Source of the DNA: Schmidtea polychroa
Taxonomy: Eukaryota
Length of the DNA stretch: 64,000 nt
Reading direction: 5' to 3'
Assembly: GCA_044892525.1 (NCBI GenBank)
Contig: CM097885.1
Coordinates: 62,248,001 to 62,312,000 of the forward strand
Below, piece by piece: positions 1 through 14,891 of the stretch. Numbering within the stretch: position 1 is the first letter of the stretch; each line of letters begins with the position of its first letter. The position numbers and the translations under genes are program-made. Under the pieces are notes generated by a model, which searched no databases, was not told where the DNA came from, and saw nothing but the letters and a program-made list of their open reading frames with translations.

Positions 1-3000
1 CACTACTCTCGCTTCGTACCTTTTCCGTTATCTCTTGGTTTATCTTGGTTACTAAGTCATCCACCGTACTCTGATTACTCATCTTTATTCGTCGTTTCTC
101 CTCGTTTGGTAACCATATGGTTATTTCTAATTTCTGCGGTTGCGTTTCTTTTAATCTTCCGTATTTGTGGATCAAATTTATGGTTCTCCAATCGCTCATC
201 CTGAGCAATTCTGTATCTCGTAATCGGCTCATTAGTTCATGCATAGTTGGGGTTCGTTTTGCTATGAGCAAATCCCAGTTGTCTTCAACTTGTTCTTGGA
301 TTTGTTTGATTAGTTTATCTAGATTCCGCCTTAAAGTGCATTGTTTTATTTGTTCCAATTTCAGCTTGATATTGAAATCGTATTCAGCCTTGGCGTCTTT
401 AGCCCATTCATGAACATTAGCTGGTTGCTTCTCTTTATGCAACTTCAATATTTGAGTTTCTCCTGGCCAGATCAATGCATCTATTAGGTGCATGTCTGGT
501 TTGATTTGTTCTCCTTGATATTGATACAGATATTCTTTCTTTCTTGAGTTACCCAAATGTTCTCTTATCCAATCGAAAAGATCGTCTGTAACTGTATTTT
601 TTATCCATATTCTCTCGAGTCCTTTACTCGTTCCGATTTTTATTACGTAGCGTGTTGTCTCCGCTTGTTTCATTTTTTCCATATACTTCTTTATTATCGC
701 TTTCTCCTCACTTGGTATTAAATCTTTTTCGTTTCTTTCCAGTTTCATTATCTTTTGTATGAAGCGTCTGTATGGTATGATGTCAATGAAATCCTGGTTT
801 CTTACCACCACTGGAAGTATTTCTTTTACTTGTTTTATCGCCTCTTCTTTTTCCTTTCTCAGTTTCATCTCGATATTCTCATCTTCACTTTCGCTTGCCA
901 CATCGCTTTCACTTTCATCCTCATCTTCTCCGATCTTTTTCTTTAGTTGTTCGATATTTTCATTTAACTGTAATATTTCTCCACTAAGGCTACTCACATA
1001 ATCCTCCTCGTCATCTGTTGACAATACCTTCTTTGTCGTCCTCATCATGTTAATTCGTAAATTTCTCATTCTTGATACTTTCTTGAGCTTTTTATTCTCA
1101 AATATCGTTAATTCTTCCGATTCTAATTCTTGTACCATTTCATGGGTTAAATGACTAGTTTGTTTCTCGTTTCCGTCATTTATCGCTTCTACTTCTGTTT
1201 TTGTTTTCTCATGTTCTCTTTCGATCTTATCTTTTATCTTTTTCCAAAATATTTTCTGGATTCTCTGATTTCCCTTTAGTGGTGTTGTTGGATTTTCCTT
1301 TTTATCTTCCGTAACCGTTTCTTTCGGCTTCTCTGGTTCGATCATAGGTACAACTCTTGGATTTTTACCATAATTGTAACAATATTGCTCCTTTATCTCT
1401 TTTACCATTCTCATCATATTTATTCGTAATGGTTGTTCTTGTCGCTGCTGAATTCGCTCTCTTTTTATTCTCTCTTCCTCAGCTTGTAGTCTCTGCCATT
1501 CTTGTGCATGTTGTTGTACTTCATAATCATTAAGATTTTCGGTGCTCCTCATCATGCGTATATTCTGAGTTTGTTGTGCTACTGGTTCTTGTCTCGGTCT
1601 CATCATTTGTTGCATCATCTGTTTCATTTGTGAAATTTCTTGCATCACGTTCATTTGCTTTCCTTCACTGGGGTTACTTTGTCGTTGCGGATTAGGTGCA
1701 TAATTATTGTTTCGTTGTGGTGGTCGTTGTTGTTGGCTCCTTTCTCGGCAATCTCTTGAGATGTGACCTGGCTGACCGCAGTTAAAGCATCCTCTCAACT
1801 GGCATATATTTTCCGTGTGTCCTCGTCGTCCACATCTATTACAATTTGCGTTTCGGTAACAATTTCTATCCCAATGTCCTGGTTTACCGCATGTTTGGCA
1901 TTGTTTGTTATCGTTCGTATTTCGTCGATTATTAAAATTATTTCCATTGTTCAGGTTGTTGCGTTCACTGTTATTCCCGTTTGATCGTCCTTGCGGTGGT
2001 TTGAAAATTTGATGCGCACCTGGTATAAACTGATTCATCTTCGGTTCATGATTGTTGTTATCTCCATTTTCCGTTTTCACCGTTGCTGATGCGATTCTTC
2101 CCTCCTCCTGTATGACATTCATTTGTGCCGGGAGGTGTAGTTCGCATCTTGTGGCCCAATCTATGGCCTCTTCTAGTGTTTTACACATCTGACATCCCAC
2201 CGAGGCTCTTACCTCTTCCCGGCGTAGTCCTTCTATGAGTTAACCAATTAGATTTTCCTCCGGCAAGTTTCCGTTCATGGCCTTCTTTGCCAATCTTCGC
2301 AATTCGCTTGCGTATAACGTTATTGATTCATTGGCTCTTTGTTTTCTACTCGCTAATTCTCCTAGGGCTTGATTTATTGGTTTGCTGGCCCCGAATGTTT
2401 TTCTCAAAAATGTTTTGATGCTTTCCCAATTGTCTAATTTCGTATTTCTTTCTTTTGCTTCTAGATACACTTCGAGTGCGCTATCGCACAAAAACAGAGG
2501 CATTCGTTTACTAATTGCTTCCGCTGTCCATCCGCACACATCGATATAGACTTCAAAATTTGTTATGAACGTTGCCAACTTGTTCGCATTCCCGTTAAAC
2601 GGTTCGCCTCTAAATTTTTCTTTATACTCGTCGGTTTTTACCACATTCATCATGACTGGTTCTTGTAACTCTATTGTTTCTTTTAAATTTTCCAGCGGTG
2701 TCGCTAAATTATGGACGGATAATTCTTCGGTTGACCCGGTTAGGTTGTTTGTTATATCGGATAGGCTTTCTCTGCTTCTAGATCGACTAGGGGTGTATCC
2801 GAGGTTTTCTTGGTCAAAGGTTGGTACTTGATTTGTTCTTTTTGCTCCTTGTGATCTTCCTCTTTGCTGTTTTATGGATCGTCCTCTTCTGAGCTGTTCT
2901 AGTTCGTCTCCTGAAATTAATACGTCTCTTGACTTACTTGAGGATCTGAGATTTAGTTTCTCCGTGATTTCTTCTTACGCCTCCTTATCGTCTCTTATGG

Positions 3001-3250
3001 ATTTCTCGGTAATTATCGGCTGCTGACTTGAGCGAATTCGGTTTTGTCGGTGTTCCGAGTCCTTGGCAATTGGTTGTTAGTGTTATGAGACGTCTTCCGT
3101 TCTTGGAATCTTCGGGTTGTGTTACTCCTACTGAGCGGGTTCTGGATTGGTTATTTCTAGTTGGTCGTTGATTTCTTCGAATTCCTTTGTGCAGGTTCTG
3201 GATTGGCTTGATTGACTGGATTGGTTTGATATCTAAAATGAAAAAATGAT
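1..3250 (-). pseudogene. gag: Ty3/gypsy-type gag polyprotein, interrupted by in-frame stops and running off the left window edge
   Basis: ORF 2240-2653 (FITNFEVYIDVCGW...LFLCDSALEVY...WESIKTFLRKTF...RKQRANESITLYASELRRLA) resembles a retrotransposon capsid domain. By manual translation the same frame continues past a TAA at 2240-2242 (LIG*LIEGLR) and stays open to position 1. Another in-frame TAA lies near 2975. The 5' boundary is approximate. Confidence 0.85.
1748..1900 (-). other. three tandem CCHC zinc knuckles (nucleocapsid)
   Basis: Manual translation gives CQTCGKPGHWDRNC, CNRCGRRGHTENIC and CFNCGQPGHISRDC, each CX2CX4HX4C. Confidence 0.92.
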
Positions 3251-3922
3251 CTCGTGTTGCATCTGCTCACACGACTTCATCATTCTTTCTTCAACATTCA
3301 AACACAGACACCGTTTAGGGCCTCTGTTATGCTTCTCTTTATTTCCCCATACAATTTCTCGTGGATTATAGTTACCCATCAACCCATAGTTTTCGTCGAT
3401 TTTAAATTATCTATTTGGGGTAGTAATAATTATCTATATGGTCGTATGAATTATCTATAATTATCATTTATAATATCGATAGGTCGTTCTCAGTTACTGC
3501 TTATCACCCCCCATATTCTCTTAATCCTTTTACGCGGTTCCGCTATTTTACTTAGTCTTCCGTCTCTGTTCCCCTTTACTCGGTTCTACTCTGAACCAAA
3601 AAAAATCAGATTCGTTTATCCGGTTTAAACCAAAAATTCTGTAGACTTTTGTCTACTTACTTGGGATCCCCTTTAATTAATTAATTACCTTCCTTTTTAC
3701 TCGTCATTTATTCCCACTTATTCTCTACTTTTACTATCTCCTCAATTCATTTTCCTTTTCTGATTCTCCTTTTCTACTAAAAGGGTTTTACTTTCATCTT
3801 CTACGAGCTCGTTTAATCCTTTCTAAATTCGACTTCTCGTATCCCAATTCAATTCGTTTCTAGCTAGATTAATATTCTATCTCATTATCAACTTAAATAT
3901 TATCCAATCATTTTCTAGGCCT

Positions 3923-4260
3923 TTACGACTGGCTGGCACTTTTCAACAGCTCAATCTTCTTCCTTCTGACCGGTTGGACTATTCGACAACTCGATCTTAC
4001 GACTGGCTGGCACTATTCAACAGCTCAATCTTCTTCCTTCTGACCGGTTGGACTATTCGACAACTCGATCTTACGACTGGCTGGCACTATTCAACAGCTC
4101 AATCTTCTTCCTTCTGACCGGTTGGACTATTCGACAACTCGATCTTACGACTGGCTGGCACTATTCAACAGCTCAATCTTCTTCCTCTCCAAACTGGCTG
4201 GACTTTTCACAGCTCAGTTCCAATTTCCCTGGCCGGCGGGACTATTCAACAGCTCGACCT
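3923..4260. repeat. 74-bp tandem repeat in the gag 5' leader (about 3.5 copies plus a degenerate tail)
   Basis: The unit TTACGACTGGCTGGCACTATTCAACAGCTCAATCTTCTTCCTTCTGACCGGTTGGACTATTCGACAACTCGATC starts at 3923, 3997, 4071 and 4145. Confidence 0.95.
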
Positions 4261-4346
4261 TAATATCTTCGACTCTGCATGCTTCTATCTTTTCTTTACC
4301 TTTATTCTAGACTGTCATCTCTCCTTTTATTTTTACTTTTTATTTG

Positions 4347-4366
4347 TCGATCTAATCTGTGCCACT
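4347..4366 (-). promoter_or_regulatory. candidate primer-binding site (CA-AG-TGG junction)
   Basis: The minus strand reads ...CATTCTCA|AG|TGGCACAGATTAGATCGAC, the usual LTR-end/spacer/TGG geometry upstream of gag. I could not assign a matching tRNA. Confidence 0.35.
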
Positions 4367-4841
4367 TGAGAATGTTTCCCCTTTCCCCCCTTGCTCAAAA
4401 CGCAAAACGATCGCATTGATCCATTTCTACATTGGTATGGTGATCAGTCATACCGCAGGAACTTTTCAATATTCGCGATGGTACCTCGCCTTACATCTCT
4501 TACTCGGGGTGATCGGTTATCCCTTCCCAACCGGTTTCCGTGTATCGTACCTCCCGAAGGTGGCTCGGTTTATTCCCCCTTTAATCCTATGTTGGGACTA
4601 GCTCCACTTTATTTTATTTGTTCAAATTAAATTTATAGATGCTCTCTCTCCATGATGAAAATTATCATAAAGTTACTGAATTCACAATAAAATGAACACG
4701 CAAAACATTCTATTCATTAGTTGGCTTAAATCACATGCAATATACAAATTTACTAGAAAATTGTTGATACATCAATTAAACATAAAGGATTTAGTCAAAT
4801 CGTCAATCAGATCAATTCTTTCACCGAGTGCTGCTCGCGTG

Positions 4842-5321
4842 TTAACTGAAGTAAATCGTGTGCTTCTCCTTTATTGCACATACACATAAAGAACAATGCG
4901 TTAAACTGACGGCGCATTCGTCGCAATGGCTAAGGTGTCCACAAGGTAGCATTAGAATTCTGGCAGGTCGCGTCTTACAAATGTTACAAGTTCTCAAGGC
5001 CGCTGCTTTTTCTATTATCGAGGTTCGTATTCTCTGAGATAGAGTTTTTACTTGTTCGCGTATTCTCACATATTCGAGGTTCAGAGCGGGGTCGTCGAGT
5101 CGTTGCTGCATCCATTGGTAATGGACAGACAAGTCGGTGTCGGTATTTGTTGACCCCAATCTGTCGGTTAGAAAGTTTTGTTTGGATATCAGCGGTGCGT
5201 TGTGGCGTTGTTGCTCTAGGGTGTCTATTTGTTGCAGTTTTTCTCTTAACGTCTTTATGGAATCGTTTTCTATGTCGACGAACCGGCTTAGTCGTTGTAG
5301 GTGTTGTCGGGCTCCTGACAT
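4842..5321 (-). CDS. coiled-coil plus C-terminal IAP-type RING finger protein (putative E3 ligase, no BIR domain)
   Basis: Intact 159-aa ORF ending CNICKTRPARILMLPCGHLSHCDECAVSLTHCSLCVCAIKEKHTIYFS, a C3HC4 RING at the extreme C-terminus as in IAP/MDM2/RNF34-type ligases. A TTTAG acceptor ends 2 nt before the ATG. Confidence 0.85.
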   Translation of the reverse strand: MSGARQHLQRLSRFVDIENDSIKTLREKLQQIDTLEQQRHNAPLISKQNFLTDRLGSTNTDTDLSVHYQWMQQRLDDPALNLEYVRIREQVKTLSQRIRTSIIEKAAALRTCNICKTRPARILMLPCGHLSHCDECAVSLTHCSLCVCAIKEKHTIYFS

Positions 5322-6283
5322 ATCTAAATAAGTATGTTGTCATTACTCGGTCTCACTTACAAAAATAAAAATAATATTATCGTGTTATAATCAATGTTCG
5401 TTTGGCTTTGTTCGCCATTGTTTCTAGTTTATGTATTTTATTCAATCTTTAATAATTCTTTTTAATTTAATTCATTTAAAATTAAACAAAATTAGTCAAT
5501 TCCCATTTTCTCTTCCCTTCATATTCAATCGCATTCATTCAAACTTATTTAGGTTCGTTTTTGTTCATAGCATGTTCTATTTTACGCAAAGACAGTTCGC
5601 ATCATCATCTTAATACATTATAATATCGATTCATTTCAGTCCCGATTCCCTTTTTTATTATAATTAATTAAATTGTTAGTCTAACACATCGTAATACAAT
5701 AATAGGCAATCAAACAATTCGAAATCAGATCCCGGCTGAGCCCCAAAAATCATGTTGGTATATGCGGGGAAAAAGAAATTTGTTGCACACATCATCATTT
5801 CACATCTCACATACCCTGCATCATTACTCCGCTCAGATACTCCCCATACATACACCAAATGATCATGTACATATTCCCACGCATGAGCCCGTGGTGATAT
5901 TCCACGTTGGTGCTGCTCACACGGGTTGGAAAAGGTTAGCAGGTGAGCCTCTGCCTTAAGACTACTCCTAACCCTTTCTCGATACGGGTTCTACGGTGCC
6001 TCAGAAGGTCTTACCCCGTCCCACATACACAATTCGGTCCGACCCTGGTCCAAGGGGACGACCTTGTATTATCACCTACATTCGACATCATCTTTCCACT
6101 CGTATCAACTTCGATATCTCACCTGTTAAAATCAATCATCAGAAACAATAAAAGATGTATTAACTTATAACAAATCATTACACGCAGAATAATCAAGAAC
6201 GGTTTTACATGTAAACATACAGCATTTATAAACACGCAAGTTCACTTAGGGACCATGCATAGAACAAGGCATCTTTGAATTGA

Positions 6284-7045
6284 TCAATCGAAGGGTTCTC
6301 CATCCGCAAGCATTGCGTCGATATCGACCGGCAGTCGTGGGTTAGAAATGTACTTGATGCCTTCTGCCGGTATTACACGAAAGATTTCCTTTGATGGGAT
6401 GGAATGGCTGGAGGATATTTCTCTTATGGTAGATTGAGCTACAGATAGTGACGCCTCGAGAGCAGCCATCGCATCTCGGCGTTTCTGATTTTTCTCGGCT
6501 CGGGTTGGCCGTTTCCGTTTGCGAGACGACGGGGGATTGTCAGTGTGCGGGGTGACGACGGTTGCCCCCGAAATCGGAGCCAAGATGGGCTCGGTAGGTC
6601 CACCTACCAAGGGTTGAGAACCCGATAAGATTGGAGCTGGAATGGGCGGTAGGCACGATCCATGCCCTTGGCAGCTCGTAGCAGTCGGTTCGGATACTTG
6701 ATGATGAAGAGGGAAAACGTTCATTTTCTCTATGACGGGGAATTCCCGTACCCGCTTGGCGAGTTCTGCCTCCGTATAAACCTTGTGGAGGGCTTCTGAT
6801 TGGGTTTTGATTGTAAGCCGTTGGCATCGGCTTTCCTCCAGCAAGCTATCTCTACAATGTTCTAACCGGAGGATTTTCTTTCGTTCCTCCTTCATTTGTG
6901 GCGGGGAGAACCACGTACCCTCATAGAGGTCAATTCTTTTCTTTAGAGCCCCGATGTATAGATGGAGCTGCGCGATATCTGCGTTTTTATCTGCGCAGGA
7001 GAAACATGGGCGAAGGGTTTTCTCAGCAGTTGTAGGAGTAGTCAT
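6284..7045 (-). CDS. ORF-X copy 1: unknown protein with CxxC, coiled coil, Pro-rich linker and basic motif
   Basis: Intact 253-aa ORF. Homologous to the decayed copies at 14035-14891 and 15890-16407 (shared CFSCADKN, IGALKK, P[P/A]QMKE, EH[C/Y]RDS, QSEALHKVY, NVF motifs). An AG acceptor abuts the ATG. Confidence 0.8.
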   Translation of the reverse strand: MTTPTTAEKTLRPCFSCADKNADIAQLHLYIGALKKRIDLYEGTWFSPPQMKEERKKILRLEHCRDSLLEESRCQRLTIKTQSEALHKVYTEAELAKRVREFPVIEKMNVFPLHHQVSEPTATSCQGHGSCLPPIPAPILSGSQPLVGGPTEPILAPISGATVVTPHTDNPPSSRKRKRPTRAEKNQKRRDAMAALEASLSVAQSTIREISSSHSIPSKEIFRVIPAEGIKYISNPRLPVDIDAMLADGEPFD

Positions 7046-9419
7046 CTAAAGAATGAGAAGTCCTTTATTTACATCATTAAAAATCCTTTCTACTATTTAT
7101 TTTCTTTTTATCGTGAGCTTTATCCTACCACATATGCATACAATCAGGATGGCCCCCCCACATCCATACCTTTGACATCACTTAACTCATCCAAACCGTA
7201 AACCTTCAAATCAACTCATCACATCGTTCGTAATGAAGAGAAAATGAGAACCATCACACGTTATTTCTCTACCCATATTGATATTGTACCTAGGTTCCTG
7301 GGTCGACAGTTATCATCTAATCGCAATAAGTTACTCCTTACCACTAATATATTTTTTCACTTTTATTTATTATGACCTATTGAAGGTGGGTCTACTCCCT
7401 GGTTTTTATGGCTTATTGAGTTATGCCTGCTTTAATTTAAAAGAAGTAGTTCCATACTGTTGATGCACTTTGCGCTGTATTAAGTTAAAACGAATTTGTT
7501 AAAAATTATTATTAGTATTAATTTCCCTCATAAATTATAATTTAATTATTTAAATTTTCGCATTTTCTGTTGTCATAACGACGCATATCGGTATGTAGTG
7601 GTGTACTGGTTTCAGACTCTACCTGATGTGCGCTAATGTGTATTATCTCGTTTTACTCAATTATCGCTGTCCTCTCTTAACAAATCCTAGACATTGTGTC
7701 TGTTAGTGTGCCTTGATCTCGTCGCTTATTTATGCATGCCTACTGACACATTCTACTATGACGCAATGATGATGTCGACTCACTCACGTCCCATGTATTA
7801 GTGGATTTATCTGTGTGTGGGTTTGGGTCTGCTTATCTCAGTTATAACATTTTTAGCAGATGGGCTAGACGGATGGAAGATAGTGAGTCAGGCTTATGGA
7901 AGTAACGATTGCTATGATTTCAAGATTTCCCAAATCTGTTATCGGGTCAAAATGGATTTAACTCCTATCTCTCTCGTGAATGTTGACTATTCTCACAAAC
8001 CTAATCGTCTCATCGATTTGGCGCATGTCGTTCCACAATCGAACCGCTGGAATATTTTATCTACGCTACTTGCCTCTCTGCAATAGTCGTTTCTCGATCA
8101 GATGGAAAATTTATCGATAATTTGTTCGAAATGGTCGATGATAATTTCCTTTAGGACTGAAGTAAGTGCTTATCATTAATTAGAACTCGGCTGTTTACTT
8201 TCCTGTCAGGGCGAACCTTATCGATGACAGTAGCTAATCGAAGGTTGATAACTAAGTCTCCTACTCGTCAAATGACCTATCACCGCGATGGGTTGAATCG
8301 CTAACGTTCTCTTAATTTATCAATTCTTGGAAATACAGAATGCTCCAGATTTTTATCATTCATCAAGAAACGAAAATGGACGTTAGAATTATCAGTGAGG
8401 TTCGAGAATTTCATCACCCTCAAGAATAGTCGGTATTCACATTCTGACGAAAAGAAGTAACTTAGCTCTGAATTGAATATGGCCGAACTCAAACTCGGAT
8501 TAAATCTCGAAAAATGTCGTCGATCTCCTAGAATTTTCGGTCAGTACGTTGTCGGCATCGAAACAGTATCGCTCAGAAGTTTCCTCAATAGAAAGCTTTC
8601 GACGGCTAATTTTATAGATAGCACTCGATGAAAAGATCATTGACTCGATTCGTTTTCTCTCACAGGGTTTCCTCACCCCTCACAACCCACCCAAGGACAG
8701 TACGCATTTCTGCCTACTGCCCTTGGACCGTCGTGAAGGACAACTCGACCCGACTTATCTCAAATCCTTCTCCAATAAATGCACAATCAATAAATTCATA
8801 TTACTGTCAAACAAATATGGGAATAATGAAATTAAAAGAAAAATCAAATAAATAAATGTTTACCTGGCGGCCACGCCATCTGGATTCCGAGTATGATGAC
8901 TCTTACTAACGTAGGTTTTTATACTCCTTTGTAATCATTGTAATACTAATATCCATGTAGACACTTGGCTGGTTCTGTCAATACAATTTCTGGGTATCCG
9001 CATTCATAAGCTCTCTCTGAAATGCATACGTAATTTAGCCGCATCATACCCGAACTCCAAAGGACGTCGTCGCCAGCATCATAGAGAGAAAGCAACATCT
9101 TTTGGTTTTAAATATAGATTTTATTGAAACATAAAACGTCTTTTGATATTAAATTCATAGTAAACATTAAAATTATCATACTAAAATTCAAAACATAATT
9201 TACCAAAATTCTCCGAAGGTGTTAGGATTGAAATCAAAGTTTTGTCAAATTTTTCCTTAGTTAGACTGGTTCTTCTCAACTGGATTCGATCTCGACTATT
9301 ATTTGCCTCTAATTACTATTTGTTATGTCCAAGTATGAATATCGTTCGTAAGTCTGTGCTCGTGAGTGGTTCCTAGTCCTGTAGAGTTTCGGGTTAGAAT
9401 GATAATTTTTAAATAAATT

Positions 9420-9500
9420 TTACCTGTAGAGTTTCGGGTTAGAATGATACTCTACAGAGTTTTGTTGCTCTTTATATATTATTTTCCGTCCAATCAGGAC
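9420..9500 (-). promoter_or_regulatory. LTR-type Pol II promoter (CCAAT, TATA) followed by a splice donor
   Basis: The minus strand reads GATTGG...TATATAAA, then CAG|GTAAAA about 50 nt downstream. The same CCAATCAG/TATA pairing recurs at 10679-10711 and 27590-27623, and a TATA plus donor occurs at 17594-17638. Confidence 0.6.
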
Positions 9501-10494
9501 ACACCTTGCTTGTAATTTTGTTATTTATTATTATTTTATGTTTTTCTTATCGTAGTATATTATATTTTAATGACCCTACCTATTTCTATTATTGTTTTAT
9601 TTATTTTCCTATTTTTTATTATTTTTCTCCTATTTTTCTGTGGTTTTATTGCTATTTTATTGTAACTTCATTTTTTTGTTTTAATTATCCTTATGGATGA
9701 TTTTATTTTTATTTTGTTTTCCTTTAATTTTCATTTGTTTTTCTTAGATTTTGTGCCATTTTATTTTTCCTTTACTGTTATGCTCATTGGGTGCCTTCCT
9801 TTTTGTCTTATTTCCCCTTTACAGGTTTTGTTATTTTATTTAGTTATTCTTGTCTCTTTATGGATGTTTAATTTGTTTCTTCCTATATTTCTCGTAATTT
9901 TTATATGTTTTTATTTTATTTACTCTATCTCTTCCTGGGTTCGTTTTTCCAACACCTTCAGAGCTTGTTCGTTTTTCCAACACCTTCAGAGCTTGGCCCA
10001 ACAATAAGAACCGAGATAGTGTCTTCCTCAGTCACTGAGAAGCATATGCCTTAGCTTCCTGTTAATTTAGGATCCATTACTACAATCTATATACTACTAT
10101 TTCACAAATTTTAAGTCACCTTCAGTGACGGACCCGTGAGGAAGCCCCCACATTACGGCCCGAATCAACTGCGTGATTGAAAAACTCCATGTCCACCGGC
10201 TGAGCTCCGGAGGGCACCTCACACCATGACATGGGGTATCTCAACTCCACGTTTCTCAACAGTCAAAAATATTTAGTTCAATAAATAAAGCATAAAAATC
10301 TGAATAAAAATCATTTATTAGTTCTAATGATATCCAAACATCTAAAACTCTAAATTCATTAAAATTGAAAATGAAGGGATCAAATGCAGAGCCGTTCGTT
10401 TACGATAAAGATTTTAATTACAAATTAACCTTCATAATCATTTTTAACTTAAAAGAAAATTCTAAATAAAAGTTCTTCTTACCAATATTATCGA

Positions 10495-11060: not shown

Positions 11061-11326
11061 TTACTAATGATAGAAGTTAAGATAAAAGAAGAAAAATGAA
11101 TTTGAAAATAAAATAATTTATTCATTATCACACCACCATTTTTCGATAGTTTAAATCTAGCTTATTTTTGGCGATCCTCCAATTCTGACATCAATTACAT
11201 GGGTAATCAAATATAATTCAAATAAATCCCCATTGCCTCCAGATTTCGACTATTTCTTGTTTCTAGTGCCAAGAGCACCAAATCCTTGAGCTCTTCTGGT
11301 TACAGTAATACCATATTGATCAAAGC

Positions 11327-13242
11327 ATGATCAAAAGAAGAAATACATTCATATACATTGTATATCTGTGTTTGATATGCCGGATGAATACTACTATATG
11401 TAAAGAATATAATCTGAAGCGTCATTATCAATCACAGCATGCAGACAAATATTCGAAATATAATGGTGAGTCGAGAATCGTCATACTTGAAAATTTAAAA
11501 AAACAATTTAAGAAGCAAACATCAATTATCCCCCTAGCATGTAAGGCTCAGGATGCATATGTTTATGCTTCTTATGCAGTTGCGAAAGAAATTGCCAAAG
11601 CCAAAAAGCCATTTACTGATGGTGAAATTATTAAGAAGTGTGCAATTAAAATGGTTCAAGCATTTGGAGATGATAAAATGGCAAAACAGTTCGAGTCAGT
11701 TTCTCTTTCTCACCAAACCGTTGCAAGACGAATCTTAAATATGGACACCTTAGTTGAAAAATTAGCCGACATAGTAAAAAATTTTGTATATATTTTTCAA
11801 TTGCGCTTGATGAAAGCACCGACATATCTCATACCAGCCAAATGCTGATTTTTGTACGAACAGTGGATGGTGATTTTAATGTTTCGGAGGAGTTACTGAA
11901 ATTGGCTTCCCTACATTCAACAACAAAAGGTGTAGATATTTATGAGGAACTCAAAAATGTTGTTTGCATGTATGGTGGTTTTGAAAAATGCACTGCCATT
12001 GTAACTGATGGAGGAAAATCAATGGTCGGGAAAAATATAGGACTCGCTGGACTGCTAAAACAAAATGGTATTAATTGTCAAATGTTGCATTGCATTATTC
12101 ACCAGCACGTTTTATGTGGAAACATTATGGGATTAAGTTGCACGATGAGTACAATTATTAAAATAACAAATGCAATAAGAGGCGGAAACCGTGCACTCAT
12201 TCATCGTAAATTCAAACAATTTCTTGAAGATTTTGATGCCCAATATGGTGATCTACTTTTGCATAGCCAAGTTCGCTGGTTAAGTGCAGGGAAATGCCTT
12301 AAAAGATTTTTTCAACTTCGTAAAGAAATTAAACTTTTTCTTATGGAAACAGAATTGGATTCGTCATTTATAGCCTGTTTTAATGAAAAACATTTTTAAT
12401 TTCATTAGCATTTTTAGCAGATATTACCGAATATTTGAATGTTTTGAACAAAAACTTGCAAGGCAAAGACCAAAACATAAGTCATCTGGTAAGCCATATC
12501 ATCGGATTCCGCAATAAGTTACGTTTTCTTCGGTCGCATTTTATTAACAACAATTTGGTGCACTTCGAGTGTTGTTATGAACTTGCTATCGAAATGCAAG
12601 AAATCGGTCAACAATTAAACATGAAAGATTATGTACCCGTGTTGGACAAATTGGTTGAAGATTTTGATGCCAAATTTTCTGATTTTGATGCAATTAAACC
12701 AGAACTAAAATTATTTAATAATCCGACTACCATCGACGTTGAAGAAACCGATATTAAATATCAAATGGAATTATGTGAATTGCAAGCTGACGAATTTTTT
12801 AAATCAAGGCTGGAGACAGGGGTAAATTTATTCAAAATGTTTCCAAACGACAAATATCCAAAATTGCGCGATTTGGGCTTAAAATTAATTTCTATGTTTG
12901 GTAGTACATATATTTGTGAACGAGCATTTTCTGACATGAAATATATCAAATCTTAATATAGAAATTCAATGACCGACAAAACACTAAAAGAAATTTTAAG
13001 AATTTCTTCAACTAAAATTGATATAAATATCGAAGTTCTTGTAGCTGCCCATATAAATAAGCAGTTTTCACATTAATAAATATTATGTTAATATTTTTTT
13101 TCTTTTTTTTCTTGAACTATGAACTAATAAAATACTAAAAAAAATTATAAATGACTTTTAATTAAAATTTATAGTATATGGCCCGCCAAACCTACAAAAA
13201 GATAAAATTGGCACACATGTACAGAAAAGTTATACAGCGCTG
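11327..13242 (+). mobile_element. hAT transposon (Buster/SPIN/GTF2IRD2-like), frameshifted transposase
   Basis: ORFs 11327-11848, 11842-12399 and 12435-12956 contain CKEYNLKRHY, (frameshifted) FSIALDESTD, TDGGKSMVG, HCIIHQ, VRWLS and GSTYICERAFS. The 3' end is ...TATACAGCGCTG at 13242. The 5' TIR was not found. Confidence 0.9.
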
Positions 13243-14034: not shown

Positions 14035-14891
14035 TTATGATCTATCTTTGTACATAACTAAGTTCGATTCGAAGATATTAAAGAAAACTAGAAGTGATGG
14101 AGTTAAGGTTTCTCCAGCGTAACCTTTGTCTGCGATCCAACCCTCGTCATTTCCATCCCGTAAAAGAAACTCAAGGTCCGACATTAATTGGGCATCATAG
14201 GGCCAAGGGGTGGTTGTTGAAGGTATCACATGAAACGAAGGTACTTGCAGAGTCGTCGGCATCGCTGTCAAAGGTGGAACCTTTGGCGTGATCCAGAATA
14301 ACGTAGCTTTTGTGGCTGCCTTTCCGTCGCGTCTGCGGTTCGATTTCTCGGCGCGAGTCAAACGTTTTCTCTTTGGTCGATAGTTGGAGTTGACCTCATT
14401 GGAAGAAATCGGGTTTCCTGAAGGTGGAGTTATAAGTGTGATTGTTTTGATTGGAGCCACACTGGAACCAACATATACAACTTCCGGTGACAGAGGTGAA
14501 AGTTCTGTCCCGTGATTAGCACAAGAAGATTTTGAAACCTGTGGAAGATCCTTGTACATATGGTGTATGGGAAACACATTCGTTTCGTCGAGAACTGGGC
14601 GTTCAGAAATCCGTTTCTTAATTTCGGACTCATTATATATCCGATGGAGGTTTACCGACTGCGACTTTATAGTGATGCGCAGATTGCGGTTCTCCTCTAA
14701 AATACTATCCCGACAGTGCTCGAGTCTTAGCACTTTTCGATTTACTTCCTTCATTTGGGCCGGGGGAAACAATGATCAATCTTCTTTTTTAATGCCCCTA
14801 TCTCCATTTGGCCCTTGTTGATGGTATCGTTTTTGTCCGCACAGGAGAAACACGGCTTTAAATTTGATGTAATTGGGTTTGGTTTAGACAT
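14035..14891 (-). pseudogene. ORF-X copy 2 (frameshift near 14775)
   Basis: From the ATG at 14891: MSKPNPITSNLKPCFSCADKNDTINKGQMEIGALKKKID, then a small deletion shifts into ORF 14035-14772 (PAQMKEVNRKVLRLEHCRDSILEE...RPKRKRLTRAEKSNRRRD). Confidence 0.8.

Follow-up and report, generated by a model that had tools for sequence, protein, structure and literature searches.

Predicted ubiquitin folds in the cargo region of a giant Burro-type retroelement polyprotein from Schmidtea polychroa

Planarian genomes harbor giant Gypsy-like long terminal repeat (LTR) retroelements called Burro (GYPSM1; Jurka 2007, Grohme 2018, both as told by Arkhipova and Yushenova 2019, PMC6431247). In the latter account, a Ubi2/SUMO-like motif lies after MATH and before BCL-2, and the ubiquitination and apoptosis domains are taken to suggest meddling with host systems, or "ubiquitin/apoptosis tinkering". 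The element type, one ubiquitin-like domain (Ubl) and the ubiquitination/apoptosis hypothesis have been in print since 2019. BURRO1 RNA goes up on smedwi-2 knockdown (PMC8532177), and PMC11410931 and PMC13238120 mention Burro. A Ubl of another giant polyprotein, coronavirus nsp3 Ubl1, is described as binding nucleoprotein and regulating its RNA binding (PMC8769549). Here we analyze a 64,000-nucleotide stretch of the S. polychroa genome (assembly GCA_044892525.1, contig CM097885.1; G000:C1:62248001-62312000), hereafter the window, in which such an element begins. Judged from its sequence, the element is a Burro-type giant Gypsy retroelement. Its large open reading frame (ORF), ORF1, encodes three ubiquitin-like segments, Ubl1, Ubl2 and Ubl3. 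We refer to the window's family as A and to three related families in the same genome as B, C and D. Ubl3 has the position of the published Ubi2/SUMO-like motif, as it does in family B.

Two segments modeled as ubiquitin folds

In many intact copies, ORF1 encodes, in order, Gag, Ubl1, Ubl2, Ubl3, a Bcl-2-like region, the envelope protein (Env), protease, reverse transcriptase (RT), RNase H, integrase and ankyrin repeats (~4,730 aa). In the window copy, an in-frame stop inside the capsid (2240-2242) cuts the Gag start off from a minus-strand frame of 746 codons (2239..2) that is open up to the window edge. The frame continues for 198 codons past the edge to a second stop about 595 bases out, which is followed by 3,541 codons. 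A first-pass annotation of the window had noted that this frame stays open after the third zinc knuckle without a protease motif, had read it as a Gag extension containing two ubiquitin-like segments, and had placed a RING ORF in the element's leader. The open frame (582 codons, no D[ST]G) and the RING ORF were both borne out (Table 1). The two segments are also present where they had been placed, with only half of the second lying in the window. By contrast, the "Gag extension" has to be reframed: because Env, protease, RT, RNase H, integrase and ankyrin repeats follow in the same ORF, the segments belong to the cargo region of a ~4,730-aa Gag-Env-Pol polyprotein. Following the frame into the adjacent sequence also located the protease ~2,100 aa past the knuckles, which in an intact copy end at aa 409, with the protease site following at aa 2518.

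The same annotation had proposed that the segments are tandem ubiquitin-fold modules. Structure prediction agreed with moderate confidence, as both segments were modeled as beta-grasp domains and not just as helices or disorder. For Ubl2, the input was a 387-aa AlphaFold2 model of the Ubl1-Ubl2 block, built from 15 rows, all of them Burro. In the best model (mean per-residue confidence, pLDDT, of 64; about 70-86 for the Ubl2 part), Ubl2 aligned in VIA-align with a Z of 9.4 and a root mean square deviation (rmsd) of 2.4 over 76 residues, and Foldseek agreed on a ubiquitin fold at E 1.2e-3 and above. Ubl1 was folded alone from 16 rows, four of which are family C/D domains picked for their Ubl-like look, and its best model (mean pLDDT 68) gave a Z of 10.0, an rmsd of 2.1 over 73 residues and a Foldseek TM of 0.66 to NEDD8. 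Among the best 50 VIA-align rows for Ubl1 and for Ubl2, nearly all are titled ubiquitin, SUMO, ISG15, UBX or UBL. With the family C/D rows included, the Ubl1 profile placed 59 of the 60 PDB matches listed in the ubiquitin family; its best single domain has an E of 0.03, the very low E-values being sums across polyubiquitin repeats. The Atlas language-model neighbors of both segments include Rad60-SLD/ubiquitin clusters (0.91 for Ubl2, with the family on 22-36% of members, and 0.86 for Ubl1), and the strand-strand-helix-strand pattern is retained in the aligned Ubls of all families. Ubl2 is acidic (net -8), has a lengthened helix and contains an invariant DGMxxDV loop. Ubl3 was addressed by sequence searches alone, which gave Pfam ubiquitin at E 0.012 and 0.003, below cut-off, and a PDB profile match at E 0.44.

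Several results weigh against these assignments and could mean that the ubiquitin fold is wrong for one segment or for both, as an artefact of modeling from shallow alignments; the alignments are shallow because searches outside the genome turned up almost no homologs. Only one of five models per run was good, the other four reaching pLDDT values of 42-53 for the block and 45-55 for Ubl1, so that models agree poorly, and Ubl1 falls below 50 in the block model. Without the family C/D rows, the Ubl1 profile had three PDB matches, with a redesigned ubiquitin at E 1.6, and the Ubl2 profile retrieved no ubiquitin from the PDB sequences. Pfam scans of Ubl1, Ubl2 and Ubl3 yielded nothing over cut-off, single-sequence phmmer searches of the three against the PDB found no ubiquitin, no PDB Foldseek match fell below E 0.001, and profile-profile scores between the Ubls and ubiquitin stayed below 6% probability. 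However, two separate models converged on the same fold (rmsds of 2.1-2.4 over 73-76 residues), one of them built from Burro rows alone, and the language-model neighbors and the conserved strand order point the same way. We consider the chance of an artefact to be slim. The models thus make a ubiquitin fold highly probable for Ubl2 and, a step less firmly, probable for Ubl1. The helical parts of the block were barely probed and had no fold match; a CARD, BAG or LUBAC-tethering module was considered for them and drew no support from any analysis.

Copies, families and selection

The genome contains 839 candidate matches to the Ubl1-Ubl2 block, of which 144 were scored. All 144 are at least 93% identical and 140 are stop-free. 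By hand count, 62 of the 144 have a stop-to-stop ORF1 of 4,724-4,817 aa, and 21 of 30 loci are open across 3.7 kb. Contigs covering the region occur in three sequencing runs that are tentatively RNA, which does not amount to a demonstration of transcription. Family B has a 4,791-aa ORF with MATH inside ORF1 and counterparts of all three Ubls, while families C and D encode two Ubls each. The three Ubls are 41-43% identical between families A and B, whereas the helices that flank Ubl1 and Ubl2 reach 26%. Families C and D are related and smaller, with Gag, two Ubl-like domains, a Bcl-2-like region, Env and Pol (e.g. G000:C4:73216601-73226602); the ORF of one of them is 3,334 aa long. Outside the genome, homolog searches found P0003 among the representatives, and P0003 and P0004 with the alignment, but none among the longer or the shorter proteins. 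P0003, from the protein collection, contains Ubl1, Ubl2 and MATH.

Conservation among copies had been suggested as a check on the first reading, and the region is both present and under purifying selection in them. Between two subfamilies (dS about 1), the ratio of non-synonymous to synonymous rates (dN/dS) is 0.04 for Ubl1, 0.02 for Ubl2 and 0.05 for Ubl3, with ranges of 0.03-0.06 for Ubl1, 0.01-0.04 for Ubl2 and 0.02-0.05 for the helices between them. In the same comparison capsid has a value of 0.02, Env 0.03, RT 0.01 and the post-knuckle linker 0.09. Shared variants among 39 of 39 copies have synonymous to non-synonymous counts of 47:12, 48:14 and 45:18 in Ubl1-3 and 157:148 in the linker; singletons among the 39 are near 1:1.

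The RING and TRAF ORFs are retained in families A and B, with dN/dS values of 0.08-0.21 where estimable. The leader RING ORF has a family B homolog in the same place that is 27% identical, with all eight zinc ligands invariant in six of six aligned copies. Two copies are ~99% identical across most of ORF1, yet only 70% identical in the RING ORF (dS 1.3; L064:4547-4996 and L066:4419-4868). Because the RING ORF diverges far more than ORF1, comparison of the copies suggests that leader modules are swapped between subfamilies.

Ubl1, Ubl2 and Ubl3 are only 17-21% identical to one another, and the family A Ubls only 14-24% identical to ubiquitin, and by these identities the three are old, separate domains. 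In a tree of 17 Ubl rows each Ubl joins its positional counterpart; since the deeper branches are open, we claim neither an order of duplication nor a donor gene. The 150 matches listed by a genome search with PF11976 include genuine ubiquitin genes and another element family, but no Burro. That separate repeat family, with a BEL/Pao-type Gag by eye, supplies many of these 150. It carries a near-canonical ubiquitin ending LRLRGG plus another ubiquitin-like unit, both in frame and placed after captured pieces of host genes and before Gag (e.g. G000:C1:15639673-15643857 (+)).

Domain ends and possible roles of the Ubl block

No Gly-Gly follows any of eight Ubls examined from families A, B and C, and this excludes conjugation and pestivirus-type cutting by host hydrolases. 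As read from their ends, the Burro Ubls are non-conjugated and are not deubiquitinase cut sites. A recurring motif may instead mark candidate cut sites of the element's protease. It occurs at seven sites in one copy and five in family B (shuffle mean 0.2), and it brackets the Ubl1-Ubl2 block at aa 640/1157 in family A, 661/1345 in family B and 92/772 in P0003. Cutting at the motif would separate from Gag an acidic-Ubl1-helix-Ubl2-acidic product of ~520 aa, which in family B would be longer and include MATH, and a second product would start before Ubl3 and contain the Bcl-2-like region.

These features suggest a model in which the Ubls are non-conjugated binding modules built into the cargo part of a single giant polyprotein. 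The element's own protease would free a Ubl-Ubl adaptor protein, which, together with the RING, TRAF and Bcl-2-like proteins that the element also encodes, may target ubiquitin-dependent death and immune signaling of the host. The first-pass annotation had likewise suggested a retroelement that manipulates host ubiquitin/SUMO pathways. A fold match by itself does not reveal a function. We favor this adaptor role because MATH is fused to the block in family B, Ubl3 is paired with the Bcl-2-like region, and the RING and TRAF ORFs are under purifying selection; indeed, in both family B and P0003 MATH follows Ubl2 directly, within the same motif bracket. With partner and pathway inferred, we give it a probability of roughly 0.5. 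Several observations weigh against it. The motif pattern was written post hoc and fitted to these very sequences, and in its strict form it finds only three sites in another subfamily copy and none in family C. The family A block lacks MATH. Constraint extends over all of ORF1, the helices among it, with dN/dS values of 0.02-0.05 even in the "disordered" stretch, and purifying selection therefore does not single out the Ubls. A predicted complex pairing the block with the RING protein of the leader, made with alignments unused, scored 0.00 and speaks neither for nor against the adaptor. A bolder version, which we regard as unlikely, would make Burro elements endogenous viruses with a full TNF-receptor/NF-kB/apoptosis counter-defence kit (RING, TRAF, IAP, Bcl-2-like, ankyrin), whose protease-released tandem-Ubl protein links their own E3 ligases to host targets and would be the first retroelement-encoded ubiquitin-fold adaptor.

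The foremost alternative to a host-directed adaptor is an element-internal scaffold. It would bind nucleocapsid or RNA of the element itself and organize assembly of the particle or replication complex, with no action on host ubiquitin pathways. The block sits right after the nucleocapsid with acidic tracts on both sides, Ubl2 is acidic in four of four versions (net -8 to -12), and coronavirus nsp3 Ubl1 (PMC8769549) is a precedent. The pace of change fits such a role equally well and so also counts against the adaptor: between subfamilies the Ubls are 90-94% identical, close to capsid (93-94% for the Ubl block against 95%), while the RING ORF (44%) and the TRAF ORF (69%) have changed faster. 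What makes the scaffold possible but doubtful is that the family B product includes MATH, that Ubl3 is joined to the Bcl-2-like region, and that the structural neighbors are cellular ubiquitin-family folds, a MERS ORF1ab row appearing only at rank 36 of a viral search. Moreover, ordinary Gypsy elements assemble without such domains.

The Ubls could also be proteasome- or p97-targeting tags, in the manner of UBL/UBX shuttles. As such they would govern how fast the cargo products are turned over or deliver bound host proteins for degradation. The best structural row for Ubl2 is the UBX domain of FAF1, although many others lie within 1 Z, and Pfam gives hints of OTU1_UBXL (E 0.006), UBX (0.2) and NPL4 (0.1); a single ORF without a frameshift would, in addition, need some means of setting product ratios. 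Every one of these hints is, however, below cut-off. The p97-binding signature of UBX domains, R...FPR, is absent from the Ubl2 alignment (five rows), and positions corresponding to the Ile44 patch of ubiquitin are partly polar in the alignment of Ubl1 and Ubl3. We consider such tags improbable. Least plausible, and in our view very improbable, are captured ubiquitin/SUMO units that are cut by host deubiquitinases or released and conjugated: the pestiviruses BVDV and CSFV, where ubiquitin C-terminal hydrolases cleave behind the inserted unit (PMC8310069), and the LRLRGG ubiquitin before Gag in the BEL/Pao-type family set a precedent, but the Burro Ubls lack Gly-Gly, those of family A are only 14-24% identical to that LRLRGG ubiquitin, and both a protease and a recurring border motif are supplied by the element itself.

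Element anatomy and comparison with described systems

The features of the element are collected in Table 1. Its two LTRs are 99.46% identical over 4,261 columns. The LTR-internal ORF is 72% identical to that of another copy (dN/dS 0.09), and other nearby LTRs hold remnants related to it (about window 14038-14775). Directly 3' of the LTR, window 5730-5752 is a candidate primer-binding site, which we take to resemble a tRNA-Pro site. Between the leader RING ORF and Gag lie ~74-bp tandem repeats (window 3923-4255). Beyond the window edge, a Pfam scan gave Env (PF24664, E 6e-72), then RVP, RVT_1, RT_RNaseH, rve and Ank_2. The Bcl-2-like region scores E 0.065 against PF00452, and all 60 PDB matches listed for its profile are Bcl-xL/Bcl-2 (E 0.016-0.046), over about 23 residues only. 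A 110-aa insert lies between protease and RT, where Burro has a dUTPase-like domain, and phmmer against the PDB gave no dUTPase match for it. MATH is absent inside the family A ORF1, both by Pfam scan and in the alignment of A with B, which shows a gap there. The accessory ORFs of this family that were scanned with Pfam gave no BIR match. In family B, a 392-aa downstream ORF is IAP-like by eye (BIR and C-terminal RING), and no counterpart was found in the window's family. Broken DNA-transposon frames, hAT-type-like by eye, adjoin the element (window 11309-12953 (+)). Most of the best 150 MATH matches in the genome lie in element frames of ~4,790 aa, and a complete TRAF-like ORF is at L032:6776-8212 (-); the planarian TRAF/MATH expansion reported in PMC6109357 may partly count element copies.

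Table 1 Features of the element (negative coordinates lie beyond the window edge, in window-style numbering)
Feature	Position	Strand	Remarks
Giant Gypsy LTR retrotransposon	G000:C1:62227406-62258003	-	30,598 bp; 5' third = window 1..10003
5' LTR	5753..10003	-	4,251 bp; TG...CA ends; 4-bp target duplication TTAT
253-aa ORF inside LTR	6284..7045	-	no Pfam family
Leader RING ORF	4842..5339	-	helical N-part and C-terminal C3HC4 RING (PF13920 E 1.8e-8)
ORF1 start, Gag capsid	2243..2974	-	PF03732 E 1.3e-8; first ATG pair at 2653
Three CCHC zinc knuckles (nucleocapsid)	1748..1900	-	at 1900-1859, 1843-1802, 1789-1748
Gln/Asn-rich, charged, acidic linker	848..1747	-	four recurring-motif copies at 1657, 1564, 1426, 1057
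Predicted helical segment preceding Ubl1	653..847	-	
Ubl1, predicted beta-grasp domain	440..652	-	without di-glycine end
Predicted long helices between Ubl1 and Ubl2	131..439	-	no fold match
Ubl2, predicted beta-grasp domain, first half	1..130, runs on to about -128	-	without di-glycine end
Acidic tract after Ubl2	beyond window edge, before Ubl3	-	
Ubl3, Ubl-like segment	about -803..-1021	-	directly before Bcl-2-like region
Bcl-2-like, Env, protease, RT, RNase H, integrase, ankyrin repeats, in that order	to -11218	-	protease active site near -4585
TRAF-like ORF	-11788..-13224	-	Pfam: RING E 5e-5, zinc fingers, MATH E 8e-25
Three further ORFs	downstream of TRAF-like ORF to -16080	-	no Pfam family
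3' LTR	-16342..-20594	-	

With Burro, the element shares a length of over 30 kb, a single ORF near 5,000 aa, a Gag with three CCHC knuckles, an in-frame Env ahead of the protease, the RT-RNase H-integrase order, ankyrin repeats and MATH/TRAF cargo. A candidate Ubi/SUMO-like domain, Ubl3, followed by a putative Bcl-2-like region, stands before Env as in Burro. Burro ORF1 sizes are given as about 4,900-5,100 aa versus 4,724-4,817 aa here, which we accept as agreement. It differs from Burro1 in that ORF1 of the window's family is without MATH, a full TRAF-like ORF being found downstream instead; family B fits the published Burro1 better, and it too carries Ubl1 and Ubl2. The published account names one Ubi2/SUMO-like domain, whereas the element has three Ubl segments, and the distant families C and D have two each. 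On the strength of the models, Ubl1 and Ubl2 are probably two unreported ubiquitin folds. In the literature consulted, PMC6431247 is the sole description of the domains and neither Ubl1 nor Ubl2 is mentioned; priority is uncertain since Grohme 2018 with its supplements, Fig. 2A of PMC6431247 and the Repbase entry may mark more Ubls. What is new is the annotation, in a so far unexplained part of the polyprotein and across four diverged families, of two further predicted ubiquitin folds that are non-conjugatable and bracketed by candidate cut sites. With it, a loosely framed hypothesis gains a specific predicted protein of ~520 aa that could be expressed and probed for partners.

Other systems resemble the Ubl block in part. 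Cellular UBL/UBX domains (FAF1 UBX, OASL, Dsk2, BAG1) share the predicted fold and bind without conjugation, but their identity to the Burro Ubls is 7-20%, with no family signature, and the tied rows name no nearest relative. In the pestivirus insertions (PMC8310069) and the BEL/Pao ubiquitin-Gag fusions, a ubiquitin-related unit likewise stands in frame within a polyprotein; there it is a near-canonical ubiquitin cut by host hydrolases, whereas the Burro domains are old, 8-24% identical and without Gly-Gly. Coronavirus nsp3 Ubl1 is also a non-conjugated ubiquitin fold in a giant polyprotein beside acidic sequence (PMC8769549), but it belongs to an RNA virus and not to a retroelement, and no homology is shown. 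Should the block prove to be an E3 adaptor, Burro would be a retrotransposon with host control in the style of large DNA viruses; should it bind the nucleocapsid, it would be a parallel to coronavirus nsp3.

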